Part shown: positions 8,692 through 33,354 of the stretch, piece after piece
How positions within the stretch are numbered: the stretch's first letter is position 1
Layout: every line of letters starts with the position of its first letter
Virus record (IMG/VR): IMGVR_UViG_3300048578_000099
Coordinates: 1 to 33,354 of that record
Source: a virus
Lineage: Duplodnaviria > Caudoviricetes
Length of the DNA: 33,354 bases
Reading direction: 5' to 3' (one strand)
The notes under the pieces: generated by a model
Databases searched by the model: none
What the model was told of the DNA's origin: nothing
The model's input: only the letters and a program-made list of their open reading frames with translations
Made by a program: the position numbers and the translations under genes

Positions 8692-8726
8692 CAAATTTAA
8701 CTATTCTAGTGTCTATTTTGACACTA
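8692..8726 (-). promoter_or_regulatory. Bacteroidota -7 box (TAAATTTG, 8699-8692) with palindromic operator copy 1 (8707-8726)
   Basis: TAGTGTC-TATTTT-GACACTA next to a TAnnTTTG box pointing at the tail chaperone gene. Confidence 0.7.
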
Positions 8727-8790
8727 CATAGGCATATAACATCTTAATCTAGTGAGTATTACCATATTACGCAAATAAATAGCAAATTTC

Positions 8791-14146: not shown

Positions 14147-14187
14147 CAAATGTACAGAACTGCTTTTTAGTGTCATAATAGACACTA
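14147..14187 (-). promoter_or_regulatory. Scaffold/capsid operon promoter (-7 TACATTTG, 14154-14147) with operator copy 3 (14168-14187)
   Basis: TAGTGTC-ATAATA-GACACTA upstream of a consensus -7 box. Confidence 0.7.
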
Positions 14188-14239
14188 AACTATTTACTTA
14201 ACTTGGTGATTAACAGATATTAATATGTAAAATTCAAAA

Positions 14240-14325
14240 TAGTGTCCAAAATGATACATTTTTAACTAAAATATTTGTTTTATTTAATAAAACAAATATA
14301 TATTTGTGTATCATTTTGGACACTA
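14240..14325 (+). promoter_or_regulatory. Accessory island promoter (-33 TTTG 14274, -7 TATATTTG 14299-14306) flanked by operator copies 4 and 5
   Basis: 14240-14258 and 14307-14325 are exact 19-bp reverse complements. The -33/-7 spacing of 21 nt fits the Bacteroides consensus. Confidence 0.75.
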
Positions 14326-14338
14326 AAAAGAACATCAA

Positions 14339-14590
14339 ATGACAACTAACGAATTTGAAGCTTACAAAAGCGAAATAGAACTTAAGATGAATGGAATGAA
14401 AAACCATGCTATTGCTTGCAAACTTGCTGGTATTGAAAGCTTAGTTAAAGAGGGGCTTTCTGATTCACCCGCGATGGTCACTATAATAGAGCAAGAGAAA
14501 GCAAATATTAACAACCTTTTAAAAGGCGAATCTATAGAGCATTTCGGAAAATCGAAAGAATTTAAAGGTTGTCAAACAATAGGAGGTTAA
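14339..14590 (+). CDS. Hypothetical protein
   Basis: First ORF after the promoter, with an A-rich start context. Confidence 0.65.
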   Translation: MTTNEFEAYKSEIELKMNGMKNHAIACKLAGIESLVKEGLSDSPAMVTIIEQEKANINNLLKGESIEHFGKSKEFKGCQTIGG

Positions 14591-15031: not shown

Positions 15032-16531
15032 ATGTTTGATTTAGAGTTTTATCCTACGCCTCCTCTCATTATTGAGATGATGACTTCCGGTCTTGATTTA
15101 ACCGGTAAAACAGTTCTTGAACCTTCGGCTGGCTCAGGCAACATCATAGATTGGTGTAAGCATTTAGGCGCTAACGTAATTGCATGCGAAACTCATAAAG
15201 ACTTACAAAGAATAGTAGCAAGTAAATGCAAACTTTTAAAACCTGACTTCTTCGAGGTTCGTAGTGAGGAGATTTCTCATATTGATTTTATAATTATGAA
15301 CCCTCCTTTTAGTAATGCTGACAAGCATATCAAACATGCATGGGATATTGCACCAGAAGGATGTGAAATAATTGCTTTGTGTAATTCGGAAACACTAAGT
15401 AATAGATATTCTCGAAATAGAGAAGTATTAGGTGAAATAATATCGAATCATGGCAACTGGCAAAATTTAGGAAATGCCTTTTCTGAAGCCGAACGCAAAA
15501 CAGACTGTAATATAGCTCTAGTTAAATTATTCAAACCAAAAATAGGTGAAAGCGAATTTGATGCTTATTTCTTCAATCTAAATGAAGATCAAGAAGATGC
15601 AATAAATGGTTCAGGCATAATGAAACACAATGATATACGCGAAATAGTAAATCGTTATGTCGGAGCTGTTAAAATGTTCGACACTGTTATTTCTGCTTCC
15701 GATGAAATTAACTCAATAATGAAACCTATAGCTGGAGGCTTGGGAATCGCTTTCGGGGCTTACCATACTTCACGCAATAATCAATTTGATACAATTACAC
15801 GCGACACCTTTAAGAAAGAACTTCAAAAATCAGCTTGGCGGTCAGTATTCAATAAAATGAATATGGATAAGTATGTTACAAGATGTGTTATGTCTGATAT
15901 TAACAAATTCGTTGAACAACAGCAGCATATACCATTCACGATGCAAAATGTGTATAAAATGATCGAGCTAATAATTGGTACGCATAGCGAACGAATGGAG
16001 CGTGTTCTCGTTGAAGCTTTCGATCATATATGTAGCCTTTCATCTGATAATAGCGAAGCAGGAGAAAAATGGAAAACAAATAGCAACTATAAGATAAACC
16101 GTAGATTTATTGATACTTATATCTGCGAATACGATGCCCGTTGGCCTAAAGAGACTGTTAAGTTACGTTCTGCACATAGGAATGATACAATAGACGACAT
16201 AGTTAAAGCACTTTGTCATCTCACGGGTAAAAGCTATGAACAAGTGATGAGACCTAATTATAAGACAGACTACGACAATGTTAGTAATACCCTTTATGCT
16301 TTTACATGCTATAAGCAGATACCATGGGGACAATGGGTGCAATGGAATGAGTTTTTTCGAGTTCGCGGCTACAAAAAAGGCACAATGCATTTCGAGTTTG
16401 TAGACGAAAATGTTTGGATGGAATTTAACAGAAGAGTATCAAAAATCAAAGGCTGGGTTTTGCCTAGAAAAACCGACACTAAGCATACCGGCAAAGAGAG
16501 AACAAGAAAAACAGGAGTTGAAGTTTATTAA
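15032..16531 (+). CDS. Amino (N6A/N4C) DNA methyltransferase with DUF4942-like C-terminal domain
   Basis: FYPTP, VLEPSAGSG (motif I) and IMNPPF (motif IV). C-terminal WKTNS.Y.IN.RFI and FF.VRGYKKGTMHFEF. Confidence 0.82.
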   Translation: MFDLEFYPTPPLIIEMMTSGLDLTGKTVLEPSAGSGNIIDWCKHLGANVIACETHKDLQRIVASKCKLLKPDFFEVRSEEISHIDFIIMNPPFSNADKHIKHAWDIAPEGCEIIALCNSETLSNRYSRNREVLGEIISNHGNWQNLGNAFSEAERKTDCNIALVKLFKPKIGESEFDAYFFNLNEDQEDAINGSGIMKHNDIREIVNRYVGAVKMFDTVISASDEINSIMKPIAGGLGIAFGAYHTSRNNQFDTITRDTFKKELQKSAWRSVFNKMNMDKYVTRCVMSDINKFVEQQQHIPFTMQNVYKMIELIIGTHSERMERVLVEAFDHICSLSSDNSEAGEKWKTNSNYKINRRFIDTYICEYDARWPKETVKLRSAHRNDTIDDIVKALCHLTGKSYEQVMRPNYKTDYDNVSNTLYAFTCYKQIPWGQWVQWNEFFRVRGYKKGTMHFEFVDENVWMEFNRRVSKIKGWVLPRKTDTKHTGKERTRKTGVEVY

Positions 16532-16541
16532 AATCAATCAA

Positions 16542-16727
16542 ATGGAACAATACTATAACGTTAAACGGTTGGCTTTAGTTTTAGCCGTACAGGCTGAAAT
16601 TGAAGCAATGAAAGCTGAAAATATAGTGCGCGAGCAAAATAACCAATCTCCTGCCTATATCGAACAATTCTACGACAAAGCGCAAGAATTAAGAGATTTA
16701 GCTTACGCGAACGACGAACAATTATAA
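16542..16727 (+). CDS. Hypothetical protein (61 aa)
   Basis: ATG 16542 just after the methyltransferase stop (shortened from track ORF 16410). Confidence 0.65.
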   Translation: MEQYYNVKRLALVLAVQAEIEAMKAENIVREQNNQSPAYIEQFYDKAQELRDLAYANDEQL

Positions 16728-16739
16728 ATCAAAATTATT

Positions 16740-17180
16740 ATGAACAAAGAAACATTAGCAGAATTGATTAACGGTAGAAGCTACCGTAACGAAATGAACA
16801 AACAAGAAGAGTTAATCGCAGAAGAAAGCGGCTTAATAGTAATATTTGGCGCAAGTGATGACCTTATCGAGTTTAGGGGTGCAATTTACGATGAAATTGA
16901 TGCCTATGATGGCACTGATTTTATTATTGCAACTCCCGGAACTGAAATTTCAGTTGATGAAAACGAAGAAACTTATCGTAAAGCTAAAGAGTTAGAAGCC
17001 GTATCTATAGAGGAAAGAAGTTCAACAAAAAAGAACAGATTTTCAGCTTTATGGTCTCCCGAAGAATTAGAGTGCTCATGGCTAATTAAGACCGATTTAC
17101 CTCACGTTTCATTTAACATTATGGAAGATGGGGAACTATATTGTCGTGGGCTTATCATTGAAGTAGCAGCCCTTTCTTAG
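16740..17180 (+). CDS. Phage hypothetical protein
   Basis: 146 aa acidic. GLIVIFGASDDLIEFRGAI.DE motif recognisable from phage early proteins. Confidence 0.75.
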   Translation: MNKETLAELINGRSYRNEMNKQEELIAEESGLIVIFGASDDLIEFRGAIYDEIDAYDGTDFIIATPGTEISVDENEETYRKAKELEAVSIEERSSTKKNRFSALWSPEELECSWLIKTDLPHVSFNIMEDGELYCRGLIIEVAALS

Positions 17181-17211
17181 GGTTACTACTAACATTTAAC
17201 ATTTAAACAAA

Positions 17212-17364
17212 ATGGATGCATTCTCAATTATTTTTATTGTATTAGGAATAATCGCAATAATTAACAACATAAATAAGTGGATTTCAGAAGGTGAGAACCA
17301 ATTATCAGAAATAATTTGGATTGTTGCTGCAATAATTTGGTGTATAAATTCACAATTACGATAG
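17212..17364 (+). CDS. Small two-TM membrane protein (50 aa)
   Basis: Hand translation: MDAFSIIFIVLGIIAIINNINKWISEGENQLSEIIWIVAAIIWCINSQLR*, with an A-rich start context. Confidence 0.6.
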   Translation: MDAFSIIFIVLGIIAIINNINKWISEGENQLSEIIWIVAAIIWCINSQLR

Positions 17365-17394
17365 AGTGTAAAAGTGGTAGACTGTTTCTTATGC

Positions 17395-17534
17395 TTACCG
17401 CTAACGTGTTGCAGCTATGCGCTGAATGGGGATTGTACCCACGAAACTTAAAACGAATAACGAAACTATGAATACAGATAAATTATCCAACGAGAACGAC
17501 AGCCCCATTTTGCGTATAGGTGCGGTTAGCAGTA
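17395..17534 (+). repeat. attC-like long imperfect inverted repeat, element 1
   Basis: CGCTAAC-GTGTT-GCAGCTATGCGCTGAATGGGG ... CCCCATTTTGCGTATAGGTGC-G-GTTAGCA (17/21 inner-arm matches). Confidence 0.7.
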
Positions 17535-17881
17535 GTGATTTTCTCAGTCTTTCTGAAAATAGATTTAGAGGGTTTTTTGAAGAGTTCGGGAACGCTGCTG
17601 AAAGGTATGAGAATAGTGAAAAGATTGTTGTTTATACGCTTAATAGAAAAATTGATAACAACTTTAATTTATCTTATCATTTAAAATTTCCACAAAAAAA
17701 AGTACAGTTCAATTTTTGGTTTGAAAAAATTAGCTACTTAAATTCAAAAGAAAGCGTAACAATTTCTTTTCATAATAGCAATGAGCCATTAGAAATGAAT
17801 AGGCTAAAAAACATATTAACAACGAATTGCTTAAATGGATTAAAATCAAAAGTAGATGAGATTTTTACCCTATACAGATAA
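17468..17881 (+). CDS. Cassette 1 hypothetical protein, with its start inside repeat element 1
   Basis: MNTDKLSNENDSPILRIGAVSSS... reads across GTTAGC (alternative start at 17426). Confidence 0.65.
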   Translation: MNTDKLSNENDSPILRIGAVSSSDFLSLSENRFRGFFEEFGNAAERYENSEKIVVYTLNRKIDNNFNLSYHLKFPQKKVQFNFWFEKISYLNSKESVTISFHNSNEPLEMNRLKNILTTNCLNGLKSKVDEIFTLYR

Positions 17882-17905
17882 TTGTCGCAGTGCGGTTTTT
17901 ACCAT

Positions 17906-18045
17906 TACTGCTAACGGTCGGCAATAAGAAATGTACGGGATTTGAAACCACTTCTTTATCCACCGACACAAACGTTCTTTAGGATTACTTAGTTTAAAAT
18001 ACGCACTACCACCCGCATATTTTTTATTGCGTGTTACCGCCAGTA
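17906..18045 (+). repeat. attC-like long imperfect inverted repeat, element 2
   Basis: TGCTAAC-GGTCG-GCAATAAGAAATGTACGGG ... CCCGCATATTTTTTATTGC-GT-GTTACCG (16/19 inner-arm matches). Confidence 0.7.
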
Positions 18046-18078
18046 CTTATTGATTATTAACATTTTAAAAACAAATAT

Positions 18079-18330
18079 ATGAAAACACGTAAAGGATGGG
18101 ATAAATCCAACTTAGATTTAAAAGACTATTTGCCAGAACCTTGTCAAATAGATGAAAGCTTGCATAACTATTTAGGCGAAATAGTTGCACCACAATACTG
18201 TTACGATGGTTTAATCCAATTAGGAGAAGCCGAACGCTCTGACGATGAAGGAATAATGTATTATATGACTTCTGTTCACATTAATGGCAAATATTTTTAT
18301 CTCGGAATATTGCCAGAGTTCCATCAGTAA
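18079..18330 (+). CDS. Cassette 2 hypothetical protein
   Basis: 83 aa with its own start. The stop abuts TATTGGCGGTAAC. Confidence 0.7.
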   Translation: MKTRKGWDKSNLDLKDYLPEPCQIDESLHNYLGEIVAPQYCYDGLIQLGEAERSDDEGIMYYMTSVHINGKYFYLGILPEFHQ

Positions 18331-18387
18331 TATTGGCGGTAACAACTCAATAACCGCTTGCACGAATGTGCAGAGCGATTAGGCGTT
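18331..18387 (+). repeat. Short terminal attC-like hairpin, element 3
   Basis: GGTAAC..TAACCGCT-TGCAC-GAAT-GTGCA-G-AGCGATTA-GGC-GTT. Confidence 0.5.
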
Positions 18388-18415
18388 TATATTCAATTAA
18401 TTATAAATACAAACA

Positions 18416-18604
18416 ATGATAAAATTAATAGTAAACTACTACACTCAAGAATGGAATGGACAAACATATTGCAATAAAAACCATTCACTTATACTAACTT
18501 TTGAAACACTTGAAGAAATTTCAAATCAAAAAGTAGAAGAAATTCTACATAAAAAGCACAAATATATTTTCATAATAGAGTCTATTCAACAAATCAAATG
18601 CTAA
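18416..18604 (+). CDS. Hypothetical protein
   Basis: A-rich start, overlaps the next ORF. Confidence 0.6.
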   Translation: MIKLIVNYYTQEWNGQTYCNKNHSLILTFETLEEISNQKVEEILHKKHKYIFIIESIQQIKC

Positions 18605-18867
18605 ATACAGATATAAAATATAATACATCAACTGATTACAAAGAGTTATATCGGTTACTCAAAGAAGGTAATCTGTTAATCGGATTTATTGCTATTGATG
18701 TTGACGGCGTTCCAAATAAAGATTATTCCAAACTGATTCAAATGTCTTATAATGAGAAATGGAAATCATTTGATCTAGGATTTACATTTTTTGAAAGCGA
18801 CTTTGATAAAATAGGATTTGAACAACTATGCCTAGAACAAAATTTGCGATTCATTCCTTTGAGTTAA
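18598..18867 (+). CDS. Hypothetical protein
   Basis: Coupled to the upstream ORF. Confidence 0.65.
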   Translation: MLNTDIKYNTSTDYKELYRLLKEGNLLIGFIAIDVDGVPNKDYSKLIQMSYNEKWKSFDLGFTFFESDFDKIGFEQLCLEQNLRFIPLS

Positions 18868-18929
18868 GCATAAGTTTCCAGTAATAAATAGGTAATATTG
18901 TAACAGATATACACTTTAAAAGACTTAAA

Positions 18930-22512: not shown

Positions 22513-23897
22513 GCTCCTGAACCAAATAAATCAACAGTATTAGATGCCTTTTCTTCTGCTTGAATTTGAATAAGTTCCGCGTCTGCATCTTCTACTAAGT
22601 TGGCCATTCTAATAGCTGTCTTTTGTGAGACAACAGGTTTACCGCCGTTGGCAGTTGAGAGCATGTCGATGTAGCTTGCTTGGTCATCAATCATGTACGG
22701 TGTTATTTCAGTATCAATATCAAGTTGAACATCTTTTAATGAATTATTCATAACACCAACAAAAGCCTTAAGAAGATTAACCCTCCGCTGCATGTACTCC
22801 CCGAAAATTTCTTTTTTATCCTCAACTTTTAAATGCGGATTCATAAACAATAATTCAAGCGCAACGCCAGAAATATTGCCTAATCCCTTAACGGAATCAA
22901 AAGATATGTCTGCTGTCTGAGTAATTGAGTAAATGAACTTTACAAGTGTATCTATTTCAAGCTTTACGGCTTCTGGAGCCTGATCCCATGATAAGTACTT
23001 AGCTTCCGATCCAGTCTCACCCTCAATTATTCCACCAGCCTCACCTTTTTTCGCAAAGCCTTTTATCCCCCCAACGATAAATATCTTAGGAGAGGCGTGA
23101 TAATCATTTGTATCGCCAAAATTTGAGAGTAGTTTCTCTAAACGATCAATAAGATGTTGTACATCAACCCATTCAACCTCATCTTGACGAGCATAAATGA
23201 CGGGTATTTTTTCAACAACATTTTTTTCGTTGCTTACTTCAACATAATTTCCATCAACTTCTTGCCATTTAATTATCTGTAATGATGTATATGTTTCAAA
23301 GCATTTTATTTTAACCCCTGATTCGGTTCGCGTAAATTCGCGTGAAAATGCTATTAAATCACCATATTCATCAAACAAAGGGTATAATGTATCACCTAAA
23401 GCTGGCGAAACGATAAGACACCTCATCTTGAACTTCGTATCAAACCCATACCGGTTATTCATCTCAGAACCTTCAACCGGATACCATATTTCAGCCGCTT
23501 CGGTATAAGCAAAAACACAACGCCCAAGTTTTCTATTCAAAAAGTCAAGCTTTGTGTCTTTCCATATCTTTTTAACAGCGCTGAAAAGAAGCTTTGTATT
23601 ATTGTCTAACGCTTCAGCATTCAACCTAACCTTGCGGCCAAAAGTGAACATTGCTGAGCTCTTTACAATGATCTTTTGTAGCGCAACCGCTATACGAGCA
23701 ACTTTTTCTGTTCTTGTACTTCCATCTTCTTGCTTAACCAACTTGTCTGGCCTTTCGGTTGTATCAAATATCTTATGCTGAGCAGGTATATATTCTTTTT
23801 CAATATCAGCAACTACTGGGGCTGTTGTCGCACGCTGCTTGAGTTGTTTAAACTTCTCATTAATATCAGTTAGCGCAAGAATTTCTTCGATTTTCAT
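22509..23897 (-). CDS. Portal protein (SPP1 type)
   Basis: KIPVIY, NDYHASP, AKYLSWDQAPEA and GNISGVAL motifs. ATG 23897 (MKIEEIL). Confidence 0.9.
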   Translation of the reverse strand: MKIEEILALTDINEKFKQLKQRATTAPVVADIEKEYIPAQHKIFDTTERPDKLVKQEDGSTRTEKVARIAVALQKIIVKSSAMFTFGRKVRLNAEALDNNTKLLFSAVKKIWKDTKLDFLNRKLGRCVFAYTEAAEIWYPVEGSEMNNRYGFDTKFKMRCLIVSPALGDTLYPLFDEYGDLIAFSREFTRTESGVKIKCFETYTSLQIIKWQEVDGNYVEVSNEKNVVEKIPVIYARQDEVEWVDVQHLIDRLEKLLSNFGDTNDYHASPKIFIVGGIKGFAKKGEAGGIIEGETGSEAKYLSWDQAPEAVKLEIDTLVKFIYSITQTADISFDSVKGLGNISGVALELLFMNPHLKVEDKKEIFGEYMQRRVNLLKAFVGVMNNSLKDVQLDIDTEITPYMIDDQASYIDMLSTANGGKPVVSQKTAIRMANLVEDADAELIQIQAEEKASNTVDLFGSGA

Positions 23898-23898
23898 A

Positions 23899-23925
23899 TA
23901 GTGTCCATTTTGATACACAAATGTA
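23899..23925 (-). promoter_or_regulatory. Portal promoter (-7 TACATTTG) with operator copy 6 (23899-23918)
   Basis: Minus strand TACATTTGTGTATCAAAATGGACACTA, nearly identical to plus strand 14299-14325 TATATTTGTGTATCATTTTGGACACTA. Confidence 0.72.
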
Positions 23926-24060
23926 TCAAAAGACTATTCAAAGGGTTATTATTTAGTGTGTTATGTGCTTAACTTGGTGTTAGTCAGTAATCTTTTATCA
24001 AGTACTCGATGTCAGGAAGATGATACTTTGTATCTACAAATACGGCCTTAAATGTTAAAA

Positions 24061-24126
24061 ATTACGCTTTAACGTAATTTTTAACTAAAAAAGCTTGCAA
24101 TCAATATACGCTATAGCGTATCTTTG
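24061..24126 (+). promoter_or_regulatory. Promoter (-33 TTGC, -7 TATCTTTG) with two TACGCT-type palindromic operators
   Basis: ATTACGCTTTAACGTAAT (24061-24078) and the perfect palindrome ATACGCTATAGCGTAT (24106-24121). Confidence 0.7.
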
Positions 24127-24171
24127 TTTCAACAAATCAGAGATAAACAAACTGATTATAAATTTAAAATT

Positions 24172-24420
24172 ATGACAACGAATCAAACATTTATTTACAA
24201 CGTAATCAGAAACAGTGAAGTAATAACATTATCTGATTTGAAAACATACTTTAATGTATCTATTTATCAAGGCGCTAGCTGTAATAGCGAAGAAAAAAAC
24301 GAACTTATGAATGATTTGAAATTATTAATTGAATCTGGTGATGTTATTAAATTCAATGATGAAAATGGACTTCTTTATAGAATTAGTGACGAATCTTTAA
24401 AAAATGATTTAGAATGCTAA
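24172..24420 (+). CDS. Hypothetical protein, possibly winged-helix
   Basis: ATG 24172. The track's TTG start lies inside the -7 box. Confidence 0.6.
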   Translation: MTTNQTFIYNVIRNSEVITLSDLKTYFNVSIYQGASCNSEEKNELMNDLKLLIESGDVIKFNDENGLLYRISDESLKNDLEC

Positions 24421-24866
24421 AAGAACAAATAATAAAAGCAAGAAAAGAGCAAGGTCTTACACAAAAAGACCTTGCTCTTAAAATTGGAGTAAGAAAAGCT
24501 ACTATTTCAGACTTTGAAACTGGAAAAACAGCATTAGGTTCTGATATTTTAGAAAAAATTATTAACGTTTTAAGTATCAATGTCATGAAAATACTTGATG
24601 AAAAAAAAATGCAATTGGAACTTAGTAAATCAATAGCTAATATATTGGTTACTAACTATAATATAAATATAAAGCAATTAGAAAAAATGACTCGCGATGA
24701 GATTTATGCATTGACAAAAGAGCTAGGAGATTATATTATAACATTGCCTGTTGTGTCTGAAAATGAGTATAAAAAGTTAGAAAAAATAGATCAAGATTAT
24801 AAAACATGGAATTTATTTTTTACACTATTAAAGCTTGATCTTATTTATCAAAATAGAATTTCATAA
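24414..24866 (+). CDS. XRE-family HTH regulator with C-terminal extension
   Basis: IKARKEQGLTQKDLALKIGVRKATISDFETGK. Confidence 0.85.
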   Translation: MLKEQIIKARKEQGLTQKDLALKIGVRKATISDFETGKTALGSDILEKIINVLSINVMKILDEKKMQLELSKSIANILVTNYNINIKQLEKMTRDEIYALTKELGDYIITLPVVSENEYKKLEKIDQDYKTWNLFFTLLKLDLIYQNRIS

Positions 24867-24875
24867 TGTTAAATA

Positions 24876-24938
24876 TTTCACTTTACTGCATTTTTAACAT
24901 TTCAAATGTTGCAGTAAAGTGAAAGTTTACTATCTTTG
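24876..24938 (+). promoter_or_regulatory. Promoter (-7 TATCTTTG 24931-24938) with a 15-bp inverted repeat
   Basis: TTTCACTTTACTGCA (24876-24890) / TGCAGTAAAGTGAAA (24910-24924). Confidence 0.65.
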
Positions 24939-24992
24939 ACTCATCAAATAACAACAAAACCGCACACCCAGGGCTATAGGTGTATAGATATT

Positions 24993-25277
24993 ATGAGAAC
25001 AGCAATTGATTCATCAGTATTACCATCATTAGTAGGTAAAAAAATTAAATGGGACGCTCCTATTTATAGTGGCAATAAAGGTCATTATGGTTATGGCCTA
25101 GATGGTGGTATTTTCATTTTAAAAAGTATTGATATCACCCAAAGACGTCCAATAATTGAAGTCGAAATTATTGAAGGTGCTGATCCTATCTATATTTTTG
25201 TAGAAACATACGGCACAGATCATGTTTTGTGTTACACTGATTCAGACAGATTTGTAACATTCGAATATGAAGACTAA
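24993..25277 (+). CDS. Hypothetical protein
   Basis: Probable ATG 24993 (MRTAIDSS). Confidence 0.6.
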   Translation: MRTAIDSSVLPSLVGKKIKWDAPIYSGNKGHYGYGLDGGIFILKSIDITQRRPIIEVEIIEGADPIYIFVETYGTDHVLCYTDSDRFVTFEYED

Positions 25278-25464
25278 AGTAGTATCAGTAAGATTAAAAA
25301 GCCTTATCCTTATATCGGATAAGGCTTACAAAGCAACCGCCTTTGATGGCTCAACTGCCGTTATTCCTATATCTCAAGTTTTTGGTGAAGACTATGATGT
25401 TCAAAAATCAGAAGCATACTGGATAAGTGAATGGATTATTGAAAAATATAGGTATGGATGCTGA
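25267..25464 (+). CDS. Hypothetical protein, possibly C-terminally truncated
   Basis: SVRLKSL..ISDKAYKA..FDGS..IP.SQV...AYWI.EWI.EK followed by an abrupt end. Confidence 0.55.
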   Translation: MKTKVVSVRLKSLILISDKAYKATAFDGSTAVIPISQVFGEDYDVQKSEAYWISEWIIEKYRYGC

Positions 25465-25546
25465 CGAAATTTTAAGGCTAAAACAATTATCGGGTTTAGC
25501 TGAACTTTTTAAAGACAAAGAATTTTCAAATTCACAGGAACAATGA
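25454..25546 (+). CDS. 30-aa ORF or gene remnant
   Basis: MDADEILRLKQLSGLAELFKDKEFSNSQEQ*, with an ATGA overlap to the HTH gene. Confidence 0.35.
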   Translation: MDADEILRLKQLSGLAELFKDKEFSNSQEQ

Positions 25547-25779
25547 AATCAAACCTAAATACGGACTTTCTTACTGAGACAAGAAAGTACATAAGCTCAC
25601 AATTGATATATTTTCGAGATAAAGAAAAATTAACTCAATTACAATTAGCTGAATTAATGGGAGTTTCTCCCACGACAATATCAAAAATAGAGACAGGTAA
25701 ATGGTCCATCTCATTAGACACTCTAGCTACATTTGCTCACTATCTAAATTTCACGATAAAACTCGAACAAAATGAATAG
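25543..25779 (+). CDS. XRE-family HTH regulator
   Basis: LTQLQLAELMGVSPTTISKIETGK. Confidence 0.88.
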   Translation: MKSNLNTDFLTETRKYISSQLIYFRDKEKLTQLQLAELMGVSPTTISKIETGKWSISLDTLATFAHYLNFTIKLEQNE

Positions 25780-26317
25780 TAAAAGAAATTACCCTCTATT
25801 TCTAATTGATAGAACCAAAAGCAGCTCTTATCATTTCGATTATATTACTTGCATGGATAGGCAAGTTGGGTTTATTGCTCGTGTTGTTTTTTTTAATGAA
25901 AATGCCCCTCTCAATGCATTTATCGAACAGCAAAGCAAAATTGAAAATGCGGATATCAGTTCAATAGTCCATCGATTAAAAAAAGGAGGTATAATTCTAG
26001 TCGTTGAAGATTTTCTGTATTATTTCGAAATAACAGAAGAAATAAAAAGTCGAATTAATACGTTGATGAAAAAAGCTTTAAAAAAATACTTGCATGCTGA
26101 AATTGAGAAAGCACCTGACAAGAATAGTTTCGGAATAGACGAGCAAATAAAGCAGCAAGAACTGACAATTGAACGAGCCAAAGCTAATTTTGATGATTTG
26201 GTAAAACGATCTTCGAAAGAACAAGCCGAATACAGCCTTGCTCTTGCCGAGGCGACGCTCGAAACATTAAAAAACTACCGAGATAATATCAATATTCTTA
26301 AATTTGGGTTGCAATAA
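25772..26317 (+). CDS. Hypothetical protein
   Basis: Overlaps the HTH gene. N-terminal YPLFLIDR, helical C-terminus. Confidence 0.7.
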   Translation: MNSKRNYPLFLIDRTKSSSYHFDYITCMDRQVGFIARVVFFNENAPLNAFIEQQSKIENADISSIVHRLKKGGIILVVEDFLYYFEITEEIKSRINTLMKKALKKYLHAEIEKAPDKNSFGIDEQIKQQELTIERAKANFDDLVKRSSKEQAEYSLALAEATLETLKNYRDNINILKFGLQ

Positions 26318-29239: not shown

Positions 29240-29279
29240 CAAAAATACTCTAATAGTGTCATCCTAGACACTATTAGAG
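29240..29279 (-). promoter_or_regulatory. Packaging operon promoter (-7 TATTTTTG) with operator copy 7 (29254-29273, extended to 13-bp arms)
   Basis: CTCTAATAGTGTC-ATCCTA-GACACTATTAGAG at 29248-29279. Confidence 0.72.
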
Positions 29280-29635
29280 GTAAAAAAAACCGCTTCTTTA
29301 ATCATTGTCAGCGTGTTATCAGTGTTCAATGTCGTTGGAACAACACGAAGTATCTTCCAACCCAACACCGCCGCTTTATTGTACTTCTCCATATCGCCAA
29401 GAAACCCTTTCCCCGAGTTGTGCCGACCGCCAACGGTGGTTATAAGCACGCCTTTCTTATTTCGATAGGTCCTTTCTTTGAATACGCCTCCCTCAACCTC
29501 AATGGCAATCTTGTGTGATGGTATAGCGTAATCAAAACGCCACATACGACCTTCACAGAAGTAATGCTCTTTAACGCAATCGAGCTTAAGGCTTGACTTA
29601 ACAAGCGTGGTGAAATAGTCGGTTTTGTTTTTCAT
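29264..29635 (-). CDS. PD-(D/E)XK endonuclease (DUF559/Vsr-like)
   Basis: EHYF...WRFDYA.P..KIAIEVEGG...D.EKYN.AA.LGW.ILR. Confidence 0.8.
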   Translation of the reverse strand: MKNKTDYFTTLVKSSLKLDCVKEHYFCEGRMWRFDYAIPSHKIAIEVEGGVFKERTYRNKKGVLITTVGGRHNSGKGFLGDMEKYNKAAVLGWKILRVVPTTLNTDNTLTMIKEAVFFTSNSV

Positions 29636-30675: not shown

Positions 30676-32136
30676 TTAATACGGCACGTCGGTAGACATC
30701 GAGAACTCAAGATTAGGTAAAACGCTATCTTGCTTGCTTTCAATGTATTCAACTACAGAAGGGTCAACATAATCGTAAATCTGAGTTACGCTTTCGTTAT
30801 ACTTGAATTCAATTACTCCAATTTCGCCTTCTTTATGTTTTGCGATAATAAGCTCACCGAGTCCTTTTGTTGAGCGACCATCTTCTGTTTCGAGAATGCC
30901 ATATTTTTCAGGTCTATTTATGAATAGCACCATGTCCGCGTCTTGCTCAATAGCTCCAGATTCGCGTAAGTCTGCGAGTTGTGGTCGTTTGTCGGTACGA
31001 GATTCAACTGCACGATTTAGCTGAGAAAGAAGAATAACAGGAACACCAAGATCTTTTGCCATTACCTTACACTTTCTTGACATTATAGCAACTTCTTGTT
31101 CGCGATTACCTTTCGACTTCTCTTCTGTAGCTAGCTGTAAGTAGTCGATTAAAACCATCGTTAAATGTCCTTTTTTCTTAAGTGACCGAGCTTTTAACTT
31201 GATGAGGTCGATAGATAAACCGGAACGATCATCAACATAAATATTTAATCCTTCAAGATTCGATACAGCTCTTTCAATACTCTTCCAGTCACCATCTTTA
31301 AGATTTCCTGTTCTAAAGTCAGATGGATTAATACCTGATTCTCCAAGAAGAACTCTATCTGTTATTACTTTGCCAGTTGTTTCAAGAGAGAAAAAAGCCG
31401 GACTACCTCCATTCATCGCATCTTTTTTCATAATCGCAATTGCCATCGCAGTTTTACCCATTGATGGACGAGCAGCTAAAACAATTACTTGTCCGGCTTG
31501 CCATCCTTGAGTACACTTTGTAAGCTCAAGTAAAGGCGTAGGTATTCCGATGCATTTGTTTTCAAGTCTCAATTTTTGTCTTCTCTCTGCATCTTTAGCA
31601 GAAATCTGAACAAGTTCTCGCCATGAGGTATTTTCACCGGCATTTTCAAGAAGTGAGTAGATGCTATCAATTGAACTATTTGAATAGCTCATAAGATCCT
31701 CTGCATCTATAGAGTTGTCATATGCTTTCTTAATCGTTTCGGAAGCTATCAATATCAACTGCCTCTTGATAAATTGTTGCTGAACTAATCTTGCATGTTC
31801 TACAATATGAGCAGCAGATGCCACTTTATCAGTAAGTTGAGCAATAGCATACGGACCACCAACTTCATCAAGATTATTAGATCTACGTAGCTCATTCGTT
31901 ACTGTTAACAAGTCGATTTGCTTACTTGCTGAAAACAGATTGTAAATAGCTTCGTAAATAAGCTCATTTGAGGCCTTGTAAAACGACTCAGGTCTCAATA
32001 TACCTGCCACATCTAAAATCGCGTCTTTTTCGAGCATCAACGCCCCTAAAACGGCCTCTTCTAAATCTATTGCCTGAGGCGGTACTTTTCCAAGGTCTGA
32101 ATATTGAGAATTATTTGAATTTTGTTTTGTGTTCAT
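30676..32136 (-). CDS. dnaB: Replicative DNA helicase
   Basis: PPQAIDLEEAVLGALM, AARPSMGKT, IDYLQL, LSQLNR and DLRESGAIEQDAD. ATG 32136 overlaps the initiator stop. Confidence 0.95.
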   Translation of the reverse strand: MNTKQNSNNSQYSDLGKVPPQAIDLEEAVLGALMLEKDAILDVAGILRPESFYKASNELIYEAIYNLFSASKQIDLLTVTNELRRSNNLDEVGGPYAIAQLTDKVASAAHIVEHARLVQQQFIKRQLILIASETIKKAYDNSIDAEDLMSYSNSSIDSIYSLLENAGENTSWRELVQISAKDAERRQKLRLENKCIGIPTPLLELTKCTQGWQAGQVIVLAARPSMGKTAMAIAIMKKDAMNGGSPAFFSLETTGKVITDRVLLGESGINPSDFRTGNLKDGDWKSIERAVSNLEGLNIYVDDRSGLSIDLIKLKARSLKKKGHLTMVLIDYLQLATEEKSKGNREQEVAIMSRKCKVMAKDLGVPVILLSQLNRAVESRTDKRPQLADLRESGAIEQDADMVLFINRPEKYGILETEDGRSTKGLGELIIAKHKEGEIGVIEFKYNESVTQIYDYVDPSVVEYIESKQDSVLPNLEFSMSTDVPY

Positions 32137-32924
32137 TTTTGCCCAAGTTTTTTGTAGTACGGAAGAATAGGTTGTGTTGAAGTTTGCGTTACTGCTTTGG
32201 GATTGAATTTCTCTTCGTTTCTTTGCCACGTTTGAAGTCTTTTTGCCAATTCCCAAGTTTCTTCCTTTTCAAATTTCATTTTCTTCCCATCTCTTGACAT
32301 TTCACTCCAGTAGTTGAAAAACGAACGAAGCATTTCTTTTGGGTACGTTCCCGAAAAAGCAGCTATCTCGTCGTAGAATATTTTAGTTCTTTCTTCAAAC
32401 GATTTGGGAGGGTGTGAAATCGGATTTTCCGATTTTCCCTCTTCTTTATTTCTTTTATTCTTATATTCTTTTATTCTTATATTCTTAGAGTGTGTTCGGT
32501 CGTTGTTCGATTGTTGTTCACTCGTTGTTCGGTCGTTGTTCGATTGTTGTTCACTCGTTGTTCGGTCGTTGTTCGATTGTTGTTCAATCTGCTGTTCACT
32601 TACTTGGTATTGTTCCCAGTTAAGTATTGTTATTAAGCGATTTGTAGAGCTTTTCTGTTGTTCAATCTGTTGTTCGATTTTTTCGAAATAGTTCAAAATT
32701 CTTTCAATTTTGCTTTCAGAAATTCCCGTTTCGGTTGAAAGTTGTTTTCGACCTGTAGTAAATTGTCCGGGTTGACAAATGATTGCTTTTCCGGCAAACA
32801 TTTCTTCACGGTCCTGATGACTTGCTTTAATGAGAATATGTATCCAAACATGAACTTTTTCAGAGTCTTTGGAGTAATACGCCTTCTCAGAAAGCTTTTT
32901 ATATATCTTTATCCAGCCTTCCAT
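32133..32924 (-). CDS. Replication initiator (lambda O-like/replisome organizer)
   Basis: MEGWIKIYKK start, PGQFTTGRKQLS HTH, repeat linker and C-terminal FFNYWSE...TW.L..RL.TW, upstream of dnaB. Confidence 0.8.
   Translation of the reverse strand: MEGWIKIYKKLSEKAYYSKDSEKVHVWIHILIKASHQDREEMFAGKAIICQPGQFTTGRKQLSTETGISESKIERILNYFEKIEQQIEQQKSSTNRLITILNWEQYQVSEQQIEQQSNNDRTTSEQQSNNDRTTSEQQSNNDRTHSKNIRIKEYKNKRNKEEGKSENPISHPPKSFEERTKIFYDEIAAFSGTYPKEMLRSFFNYWSEMSRDGKKMKFEKEETWELAKRLQTWQRNEEKFNPKAVTQTSTQPILPYYKKLGQK
32446..32586. repeat. Probable replication origin: 33-bp tandem repeats (11-bp subunits) plus an AT-rich tract
   Basis: TGTTCGGTCGTTGTTCGATTGTTGTTCACTCGT at 32493, 32526 and 32559 (last copy 28 bp), next to TATTCTT repeats at 32446-32486. 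Confidence 0.75.
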
Positions 32925-32925
32925 G

Positions 32926-33108
32926 TTACAGTTCGAATTTGAGTTTGTAACGCATAATGTATATATCACCAAGATTCCAAGAATTAGATTTCATTTTGGA
33001 ACCTATAGTAAATCTTGACTGCTCCATTTGTTCTGCTAACTCTTGCTGAGTCATGCATTTACGTTTCAGTTCAATTCTTACTTTTTCCGATGTTGTTAGG
33101 TCTTGCAT
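32926..33108 (-). CDS. Cro-like HTH protein
   Basis: ELKRKCMTQQELAEQMEQSRFTIG. Confidence 0.7.
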   Translation of the reverse strand: MQDLTTSEKVRIELKRKCMTQQELAEQMEQSRFTIGSKMKSNSWNLGDIYIMRYKLKFEL

Positions 33109-33180
33109 TCTTGTATAATTTAAACATTCAAGGACTTAAGCTGATAAAACCGGACTTGCACATCCGGTTAATAAGAGATG

Positions 33181-33206
33181 TAAATATAGTATCATTCTGG
33201 ACACTA
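33181..33206 (-). promoter_or_regulatory. Operator copy 8 (33187-33206) overlapping a near-consensus -7 box of the replication operon
   Basis: TAGTATC-ATTCTG-GACACTA. Minus strand TATATTTA at 33188-33181. Confidence 0.62.
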
Positions 33207-33258
33207 TAAGGGATTTTAAAAAAAACATTATTTCGTTTATTGGAGTGTTAGGCACAAG

Positions 33259-33354
33259 CTAATCAACGAGCTGGTCTTTTATGTAAAGTCTTTGTTTGAA
33301 AGTTAACTTTTGTTTTTCACCATCAATCCAATGATAATACCAATTTGTTGCCCA
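33259..33354 (-). CDS. 3' end of a hypothetical gene entering the window
   Basis: Open frame ...WATNWYYHWIDGEKQKLTFKQRLYIKDQLVD*. Confidence 0.4.
   Translation of the reverse strand, partial: WATNWYYHWIDGEKQKLTFKQRLYIKDQLVD

Follow-up and report, generated by a model that had tools for sequence, protein, structure and literature searches.

The stretch of DNA analysed here (the window) is a whole viral record of 33,354 bases, estimated to be 61% complete; its genes include those for tail, capsid, portal and replication. Past a putative methyltransferase gene (15032-16531) comes a rightward run of small genes, and there the window carries two hairpins with AAC/GTT cores, two genes and a short closing element. 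The features needed below, in window coordinates, are:

17402..17528, plus strand: hairpin site 1, attC-like (TAAC core 17402-05, GTTA core 17525-28; 81.8 bits with covariance model R1)
17912..18036, plus strand: hairpin site 2, attC-like (TAAC 17912-15, GTTA 18033-36; 71.9 bits with model R1)
17405..17914, plus strand: cassette A, putative mobile unit of 510 bp (C, hairpin 1, gene, TAA)
17468..17881, plus strand: gene of cassette A, 137 aa, with its ATG within the loop of hairpin 1
17915..18342, plus strand: cassette B, putative mobile unit of 428 bp (12/13 end complementarity; tail matched at locus L079)
18079..18330, plus strand: gene of cassette B, 83 aa (23 homologs)
18340..18387, plus strand: candidate terminal docking site, attI-like (TAAC, 7 nt, TAACCG, then a short stem)
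33234..33250 (to 33264), minus strand: candidate second attI-like half-site (weak model hit, 14.9 bits, E 0.3)

Two hairpins and two genes are arranged like an integron cassette array

The original prediction, made from the letters alone, had read this region as an integron-like array of gene cassettes inside a phage, and the strings and coordinates it quoted are exact. The shared fold it described is there as well: in both elements TAAC is followed by 5 nt and a stem of about 20 bp, and the returning stem by 1-2 nt and GTTA. With scores of 43.5 and 39.5 they exceed every other hairpin of this kind on both strands of the window (next 28), and the plus strand is the predicted folded strand of hairpin 1. 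Two descriptive points need amendment. Single open reading frames were said to lie between the repeats, but the first of them (17468-17881) starts inside the loop of element 1; and the short terminal hairpin, although present, differs in geometry and has GTTT at its end instead of GTTA.

The predicted complementarity of the cassette ends is also exact, at 10/10 between 17525-34 and 17906-15 and at 12/13 between 18033-45 and 18331-43, and joining the ends of cassette A extends the stem. As three 10/10 end pairs lie within 2 kb in the window, against a shuffle mean of 0.8 and a maximum of 3, the end matches of the window alone are modest evidence. Searches of Rfam gave no relevant match for the hairpins (no motif there matched at gathering score, and Flavo-1, seen in the available text of PMC9723704, was rejected as a candidate), and terminator prediction made no call at the hairpin sites.

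The loop and right arm of hairpin 1 code for the N-terminal leader of the cassette A protein, with the GTT core read as Val. Among its 70 homologs the body is conserved, while the leaders vary up to the GTT codon, and a V-x-x-S junction is found in 52 of them. Neither cassette protein has a match in PHROG, NCBIfam or Pfam, or a usable Atlas match. Copies of hairpin 1 in five other loci (L030, L033, L073, L050 and L051) are 88-94% identical and bounded by both cores; they precede unrelated DNA, and homology stops at 17528-17531. At the other end, BLAST identity of six cassette A homologs (L230, L231, L232, L233, L238, L243) ends at 17915-17917 and is followed by different DNA. The cassette B protein as a query found no viral locus; a tail in locus L079 is homologous to cassette B and ends at 18343.

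Neighbouring features of the phage

Positions 16700-18900 gave no match among cultured phage records, and the system is assigned to Bacteroidota through homologs: Flavobacterium is the source of the named relatives of the cassette A protein, and the titles of genomes with the arm pattern of the hairpin family point mostly to Bacteroidota. Upstream of the array, the gene at 15032-16531 encodes a 499-aa methyltransferase-like protein with DUF4942 and has no hairpins at its borders. Relatives of the next upstream gene (16740-17180), found at 27 loci, are too distant and lack hairpins of the family; immediately past its stop codon lies GTTACTACTAAC (17181-17192), possibly a collapsed remnant of a cassette core. 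Downstream, the frame at 18416-18604 (over 18414-18590) is matched at about 88% identity by short contigs with a depth in the thousands in one wastewater run, X2.

Elsewhere in the window, a partly palindromic motif of about 20-30 nt (AGTGTC-N7-GAYAC type) is repeated between genes on both strands:

8696-8731, 14163-14196, 14228-14266, 14298-14339, 23882-23926, 29251-29284 and 33180-33223, both strands: AGTGTC-N7-GAYAC-type motif

It is likely to be a phage operator or promoter; a strict regular expression for it did not recover the motif in the window. The DnaD-like replication gene (32133-32972) contains an 11-nt tandem repeat in eight in-register copies (32482-32602), presumably origin iterons by analogy. 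A low-GC (26-33%) block of plus-strand frames with two HTH regulators (24124-26317) lies amid minus-strand packaging genes. Finally, the minus-strand half-site at 33234-33264 is preceded by the 3' end of a cassette-type gene and lies just upstream of the replication module; the 33234..33250 element is likely the end of another array, most of which would lie past the end of the contig.

The hairpins belong to a family widespread in Bacteroidota and their phages

A 16-base pattern taken from hairpin 1 matched 71 viral loci, several with arrays of 7-9 hairpins (overall, loci were selected with two sequence patterns). The core pattern of the family is TAAC-G...T-GTTA, with G after the left TAAC in 97% of 116 elements. 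In 320 of 576 hairpins a second-box motif stands at a distance of 10 nt from TAAC, with its partner 5-6 nt from GTTA, and the consensus next to the core has a 5-versus-1 nt bulge, in line with the early remark that the spacer asymmetry is unlike that of canonical attC sites. Across 45 elements, double-sided changes occur at 16 of the 17 predicted pairs. The covariance model that had been suggested as a check (R1) was built from these 45 elements with the window excluded, and it finds both window hairpins at the scores listed above.

It had further been claimed that the left end of each repeat fits the start of its own cassette better than its own right end. This does not hold at element 1, whose own ends match over 6 nt (GCTAAC/GTTAGC) and whose best upstream match is 4/6, but it does hold for the family. 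We scored 67 adjacent pairs from the 71 viral loci and the window over six outer bases. On average 4.6 of these match where a cassette closes, while the two ends of one hairpin match at 2.1 and shuffled partners at 2.3 (no more than 2.85 in any of 2000 shuffles); 46 of the 67 pairs reach at least 5 (3.8 expected). At the family level, complementarity between successive hairpins is thus far beyond chance. One position departs from the pattern: the seventh base outside the core is complementary in 6% of closed cassettes (L043 is an example), versus 63-94% at neighbouring positions, which suggests a conserved mismatch in the outer stem.

The family is widespread in Bacteroidota and their phages, in tandem cassette arrays on one strand; 4 loci out of 178 are exceptions, with elements on both. 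In the genome survey, where the best 150 of 459 hairpin matches are listed, hairpins occur in at least 58 of 101 Bacteroidota genomes. Together with the covariation, this bears out the predicted structure-recognised cassette system of Bacteroidota and their phages. One chromosomal hairpin gave no match when searched against plasmids. As to cargo, 32 of 100 cassette proteins scanned (out of 161, a pattern-biased sample) are DNA methyltransferases or Mom-family modifiers. In two viral loci a tmRNA gene and a tRNA gene lie near the arrays (L064 4255-4640; L078 1137-1237).

A specific recombinase stands at the downstream end of the arrays

The original prediction had placed the recombinase outside the window and advised looking for a tyrosine recombinase that co-occurs with the repeats. 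No tyrosine recombinase was found in the window record (61% complete), and one is linked to the arrays at other loci. In the viral loci L034, L102 and L110 and in contig L293 its gene starts 25-51 nt past the terminal TAAC, terminal sites lie 25-235 nt from it at several loci, and longer forms face the arrays in bacterial contigs. The short phage form is encoded at L034:1583-2386, and a chromosomal form at L382:18327-19367 on the minus strand. The recombinase is present in 34 of the 101 surveyed genomes, at least 29 of which also have hairpins (at least 29/34, versus at least 29/67 of the genomes without it; p 8e-5, with the seed genome excluded and kinship not corrected). It lies 3' of the last hairpin in 14/14 regions with detected hairpins (out of 17 regions considered), and it is oriented toward the array in 10 of the 14 host arrays examined. 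A specific recombinase family thus co-occurs with the hairpins, at the downstream array end. Searched against cultured phage records at E 1e-50, its short form had no match.

The enzyme combines PF00589 with PF13495. Its best PDB and NCBIfam matches are XerA/XerC-like, with VchIntIA among the top PDB matches, and it scores below the cut-offs for XerC, XerD, XerA and the integron integrase (for TIGR02249, 136-209 bits against a cut-off of 265). About 48 residues of VchIntIA are missing from it (two-piece alignment, 178 to 209 against 181 to 260); according to the available text of PMC7790495, that region is held to contain the I2 helix of IntI, which reads extrahelical bases. Other tyrosine recombinases of the same genomes score 115-165 bits versus 280-327 for the array-linked enzyme. 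This Xer-like enzyme without the IntI insertion is likely to be the recombinase of the system.

The orientation of genes relative to hairpins depends on the setting. In phages 152 genes are on the hairpin strand and 5 opposite to it, with 13 undecided, and in integrase-linked chromosomal arrays the corresponding numbers are 1, 23 and 9. A sigma-70 promoter scan was uninformative for a Pc.

A different reading is that the hairpins are ordinary attC sites without an integrase nearby (CALIN), served by the canonical IntI of some host. On one hand, the AAC/GTT core, the hairpin and the G after AAC are the same, complete integrons occur occasionally in Bacteroidota (Salinibacter) according to the accessible part of the IntegronFinder 2 report, and Qi 2023 (PMC9892861, in its available text) found that IntI1 recombines 5/6 phage attC sites. 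On the other hand, the single site not integrated by IntI1 in that study, P12002L_attC1, which the available text treats as a canonical attC, is a short member of the present family on the phage coding strand, albeit with a weak score (22.3 bits, E 0.0055). Around the methyltransferase and Mom-like genes of that Polaribacter phage (L099, NC_028924, 30001-39252) we find seven model hits of at least 20 bits on the coding strand, whereas two sites were tested there, and the text at hand recognises no family, orientation or recombinase for P12002L_attC1. Moreover, the second box stands 10 nt from the core in hairpins and 7 nt in terminal sites, the bulge is non-canonical, and the linked recombinase lacks the VchIntIA residues and stays under the TIGR02249 cut-off. 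We thus regard service by a canonical IntI as improbable.

Homologous cassettes point to exchange at the left core

Since flank complementarity cannot tell which core is exchanged, homologous cassettes were compared; the flank test covered 404 elements, closed cassettes by themselves having yielded 12 homologous pairs. Where the downstream gene is shared, hairpin identity averages 0.79 and is at least 0.8 in 76 of 163 pairs and in 18 of 28 families (20 of 72 pairs after removal of those in which both members were selected by pattern). Where the upstream gene is shared and the downstream gene is not, identity is 0.54, which equals background, and not one of 49 pairs or 25 families reaches 0.8. 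Genome loci repeat this result, the hairpin being kept with the downstream gene in 8 of 9 cases and with the upstream gene in 0 of 11. Neither the pairs nor the genomes in these tests are phylogenetically independent. Between homologous cassettes, identity of 0.9-1.0 drops to about 0.4 one base past TAACG; the breakpoint falls within this invariant motif, and the exact base is beyond the resolution of the comparison.

These comparisons indicate base-precise exchange at the left core, and the dominant mobile unit would be a hairpin with the gene that follows it, i.e. 17405-17914 and 17915-18342. As the gene start lies in the loop, a left-core cut keeps the start with its gene. Because G follows the left AAC in nearly all elements, the coding strand here corresponds to the bottom strand of a canonical attC; in most attC sites, according to the available text of Bouvier 2009, the R'-box AAC is followed by G. 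It follows that the G|TT rule holds for the minus strand at the left core.

The original prediction had drawn the main crossover elsewhere, as a G|TT cut of the coding strand at the right core (17525/6 and 18033/4), with the gene travelling together with the hairpin that follows it and 17526-18033 as the circle. Certain observations agree with it: the complementarity of cassette ends fits either geometry, homology of the hairpin 1 copies ends at or just past the end of the GTTA core, and cassette A homologs have variable leaders as far as the GTT codon. Nevertheless, no hairpin is kept with the upstream gene in the 49 pairs and 25 families above, homologs of cassette A break at the left core, and the strand assignment and the published Riemerella unit described below both favour that core. 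As the main route, the right-core cut is refuted, and we give it very little chance; it survives as a minor one. Among 100 close homolog pairs sharing the downstream gene, 41 differ in the hairpin, so a single left-core cut cannot explain everything. Ten of 17 families in which the gene is shared and the hairpin differs break within 3 nt of GTTA, as had been expected of relatives in general; most of the remaining swap families are inflated by the search pattern, and some break inside the arms. The right GTTA core is thus a real, though minor, breakpoint.

A Riemerella resistance unit ends at the same core

According to the available text of PMC13148043 (2026), no flanking homology is needed for aph(3')-IVb to integrate in the duck pathogen Riemerella anatipestifer, and the mechanism is left unexplained. 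The integrated unit is described as including 27 bp upstream and a 140-bp "attC-analogous" stem-loop, with no enzyme named in that text. This stem-loop is a member of the present family (84.5 bits). The published ends of the unit map to 16531 and 17486 on plasmid NZ_CP073240, both in GTT (AAC on the folded strand), the same core as the comparative breakpoint; the mapping used the RCAD0416 plasmid copy rather than the transformed strain and assumes that they match, the identity given in the available text covering the 140-bp side only. In this unit the gene has host orientation, with the hairpin after it, and the text at hand names no family.

On the Riemerella plasmid NZ_CP073240 (L398, 1989-17495) the phage-trained model finds ten sites of 63-108 bits, one after ere(D) and nine directly after plus-strand genes:

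NZ_CP073240, plus strand, genes before the nine sites: aadS, tet(X4), lnu(I), RelE-HTH pair, blaOXA, tet(X5), estT, phosphotransferase, aph(3')

The resistance region of this plasmid is a cassette array of the same hairpin family.

Wobble pairs follow the strand of the core

A further proposal would see in the hairpins conserved RNA leaders or terminators that double as short homology blocks for homologous recombination by host or phage, with no dedicated recombinase. An ATG within the loop, in frame with at least 50 open codons past GTTA, is present in 176 of 560 elements, some swaps break inside the arms, and an excess of G.T over A.C pairs on the phage coding strand would suit RNA too. However, this excess follows the TAACG strand in either gene direction, whether or not that strand codes (phage 757:275, chromosomal 97:48, plasmid 19:6), which favours a folded DNA strand over mRNA structure; in 94 of 120 elements sampled the TAACG strand also has the more stable fold. 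Base-precise breakpoints at a 5-nt core, the linked recombinase and the negative Rfam and terminator results likewise speak against such leaders, and we find them a very unlikely explanation. MITEs or other dispersed repeats with target-site duplications, which the approximately 120-bp imperfect inverted repeats and their many copies per genome (among the matches listed) could bring to mind, can practically be discarded: no direct repeat abuts the cores in 385 of 459 elements and one of at least 3 nt does in only 10, this absence of duplications contradicting the idea, as do the complementary flanks of successive elements and the rarity of loci with both strands.

The element at 18340 fits an attI-like docking site

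There are 101 TAAC sites that close a cassette without a detected hairpin; the 39 with a following G were excluded as probable missed hairpins, and the 62 with no following G form the terminal-site set. Among the latter, TWNNCG lies exactly 7 nt past TAAC in 28 (0.8% of random TAAC), and 54 have no stem. The terminal element of the window fits TAAC-N7-TWNNCG at 18340-18356, retains a short stem with its GTTT end, and gave no match with model R1 over 18340..18387. It fits an attI-like docking site.

Three related phage contigs from three studies (X1, X3 and X16) bear on what happens there. X1 and X3 bridge both window flanks with other DNA in place of the array, 349 nt and 1064 nt long against 1616-1620 nt in the window. 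The point of rejoining the window is 18340 for X3 and X16 and 18350 for X1; upstream of it the DNA differs, and in X16 it includes a different cassette end ahead of 18340. Related phages thus swap cargo at 18340. In X3 and X16 the terminal element is about 95 nt longer, that of the window being a shortened version. The left breakpoints of the relatives (16719, 16733) lie off any TAAC core, which means that other processes, too, alter the upstream side. In related contigs from eight sequencing runs a precise empty site was not seen, and the joint of a circle was absent from the contigs of these runs, although contigs alone prove nothing here.

Proposed mechanism and its meaning

The full explanation that we prefer, and hold to be quite probable, is a two-cassette array of an integron-like system common to Bacteroidota and their phages. 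The substrate would be the folded single plus-strand hairpin, recombined at its left TAAC core with a cut at AA|C by a Xer-like tyrosine recombinase supplied in trans from elsewhere, and the product would be resolved by replication as in integrons. The 5-versus-1-nt bulge may replace the extrahelical bases read by the I2 helix of IntI. Units made of a hairpin and a gene would be inserted at the docking site 18340. In host arrays genes have the canonical orientation and are followed by their hairpin; in phages they lie on the other strand, so that a hairpin heads each gene and often gives its start codon. Minor exchange, or homologous recombination, at the right GTTA core would swap hairpins and leaders between genes. 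Against this we count the absence of a recombinase from the 61%-complete record, the hairpins in genomes without the recombinase (at least 29/67) and the left breakpoints off the cores.

Bacteroidota are regarded as nearly free of integrons, and the I2 helix is held to be what allows hairpin recombination. We consider it somewhat probable that the system is a second, independent integron lineage in this phylum, with an I2-less enzyme, single-stranded DNA hairpins read by their bulge, tet(X), blaOXA and further resistance genes as cassettes, and, in phages, a reversed, swappable library of DNA methylase and other accessory genes. If so, more than half of the genomes of the phylum would contain sites of this lineage, phages would draw on a host or phage recombinase, and the hairpin would serve as the gene's translation start. 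A parallel system without I2 would make it possible to test the origin of single-strand recombination directly. It would also explain how Riemerella takes up resistance genes independently of homology, and would assign tet(X) variants to defined cassettes that current integron software misses; for phages it would be a dedicated route of accessory-gene exchange. The window is a small example without its own recombinase, with a docking site and cargo-swapping relatives.

Comparison with integrons and Xer recombinases

In the literature searched, mostly outside subscription papers, no description of the system was found. The accessible part of the IntegronFinder 2 report mentions almost no integrons in Bacteroidetes, and none of the 11 taxon-specific attC models is for Bacteroidota; neither source covers the present family. 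As for XerC, XerD and XerA, the recombinase best matches XerA/XerC-like proteins; unlike them, it falls below all curated cut-offs and is linked to cassette arrays.

The likeness to integrons is considerable. Both have an AAC/GTT core whose AAC is followed by G on the folded strand, hairpins that are strand-biased and little conserved in sequence, tandem one-gene cassettes, and a non-hairpin docking site beside a tyrosine recombinase, whose N-terminus here falls in PF13495. The sites are imperfect palindromes with the R'-box crossover on the bottom strand, as in attC, and the terminal site lies next to the integrase at the insertion end, as attI does, although that of the window keeps a short stem. 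Gene orientation follows the canonical integron layout in host arrays (23 of 24 decided cases) and is reversed in phages (152 of 157). The differences concern the enzyme and the spacers: the recombinase lacks the insertion that holds the I2 helix, and the spacers of 8 versus 4 nt are partly paired into the 5-versus-1 bulge, whereas canonical attC sites, which also have 2-3 extrahelical bases on the R''-L'' arm, have unpaired spacers of similar length. The system thus works like an integron, yet departs from one in two defining respects, the IntI domain and the attC geometry.
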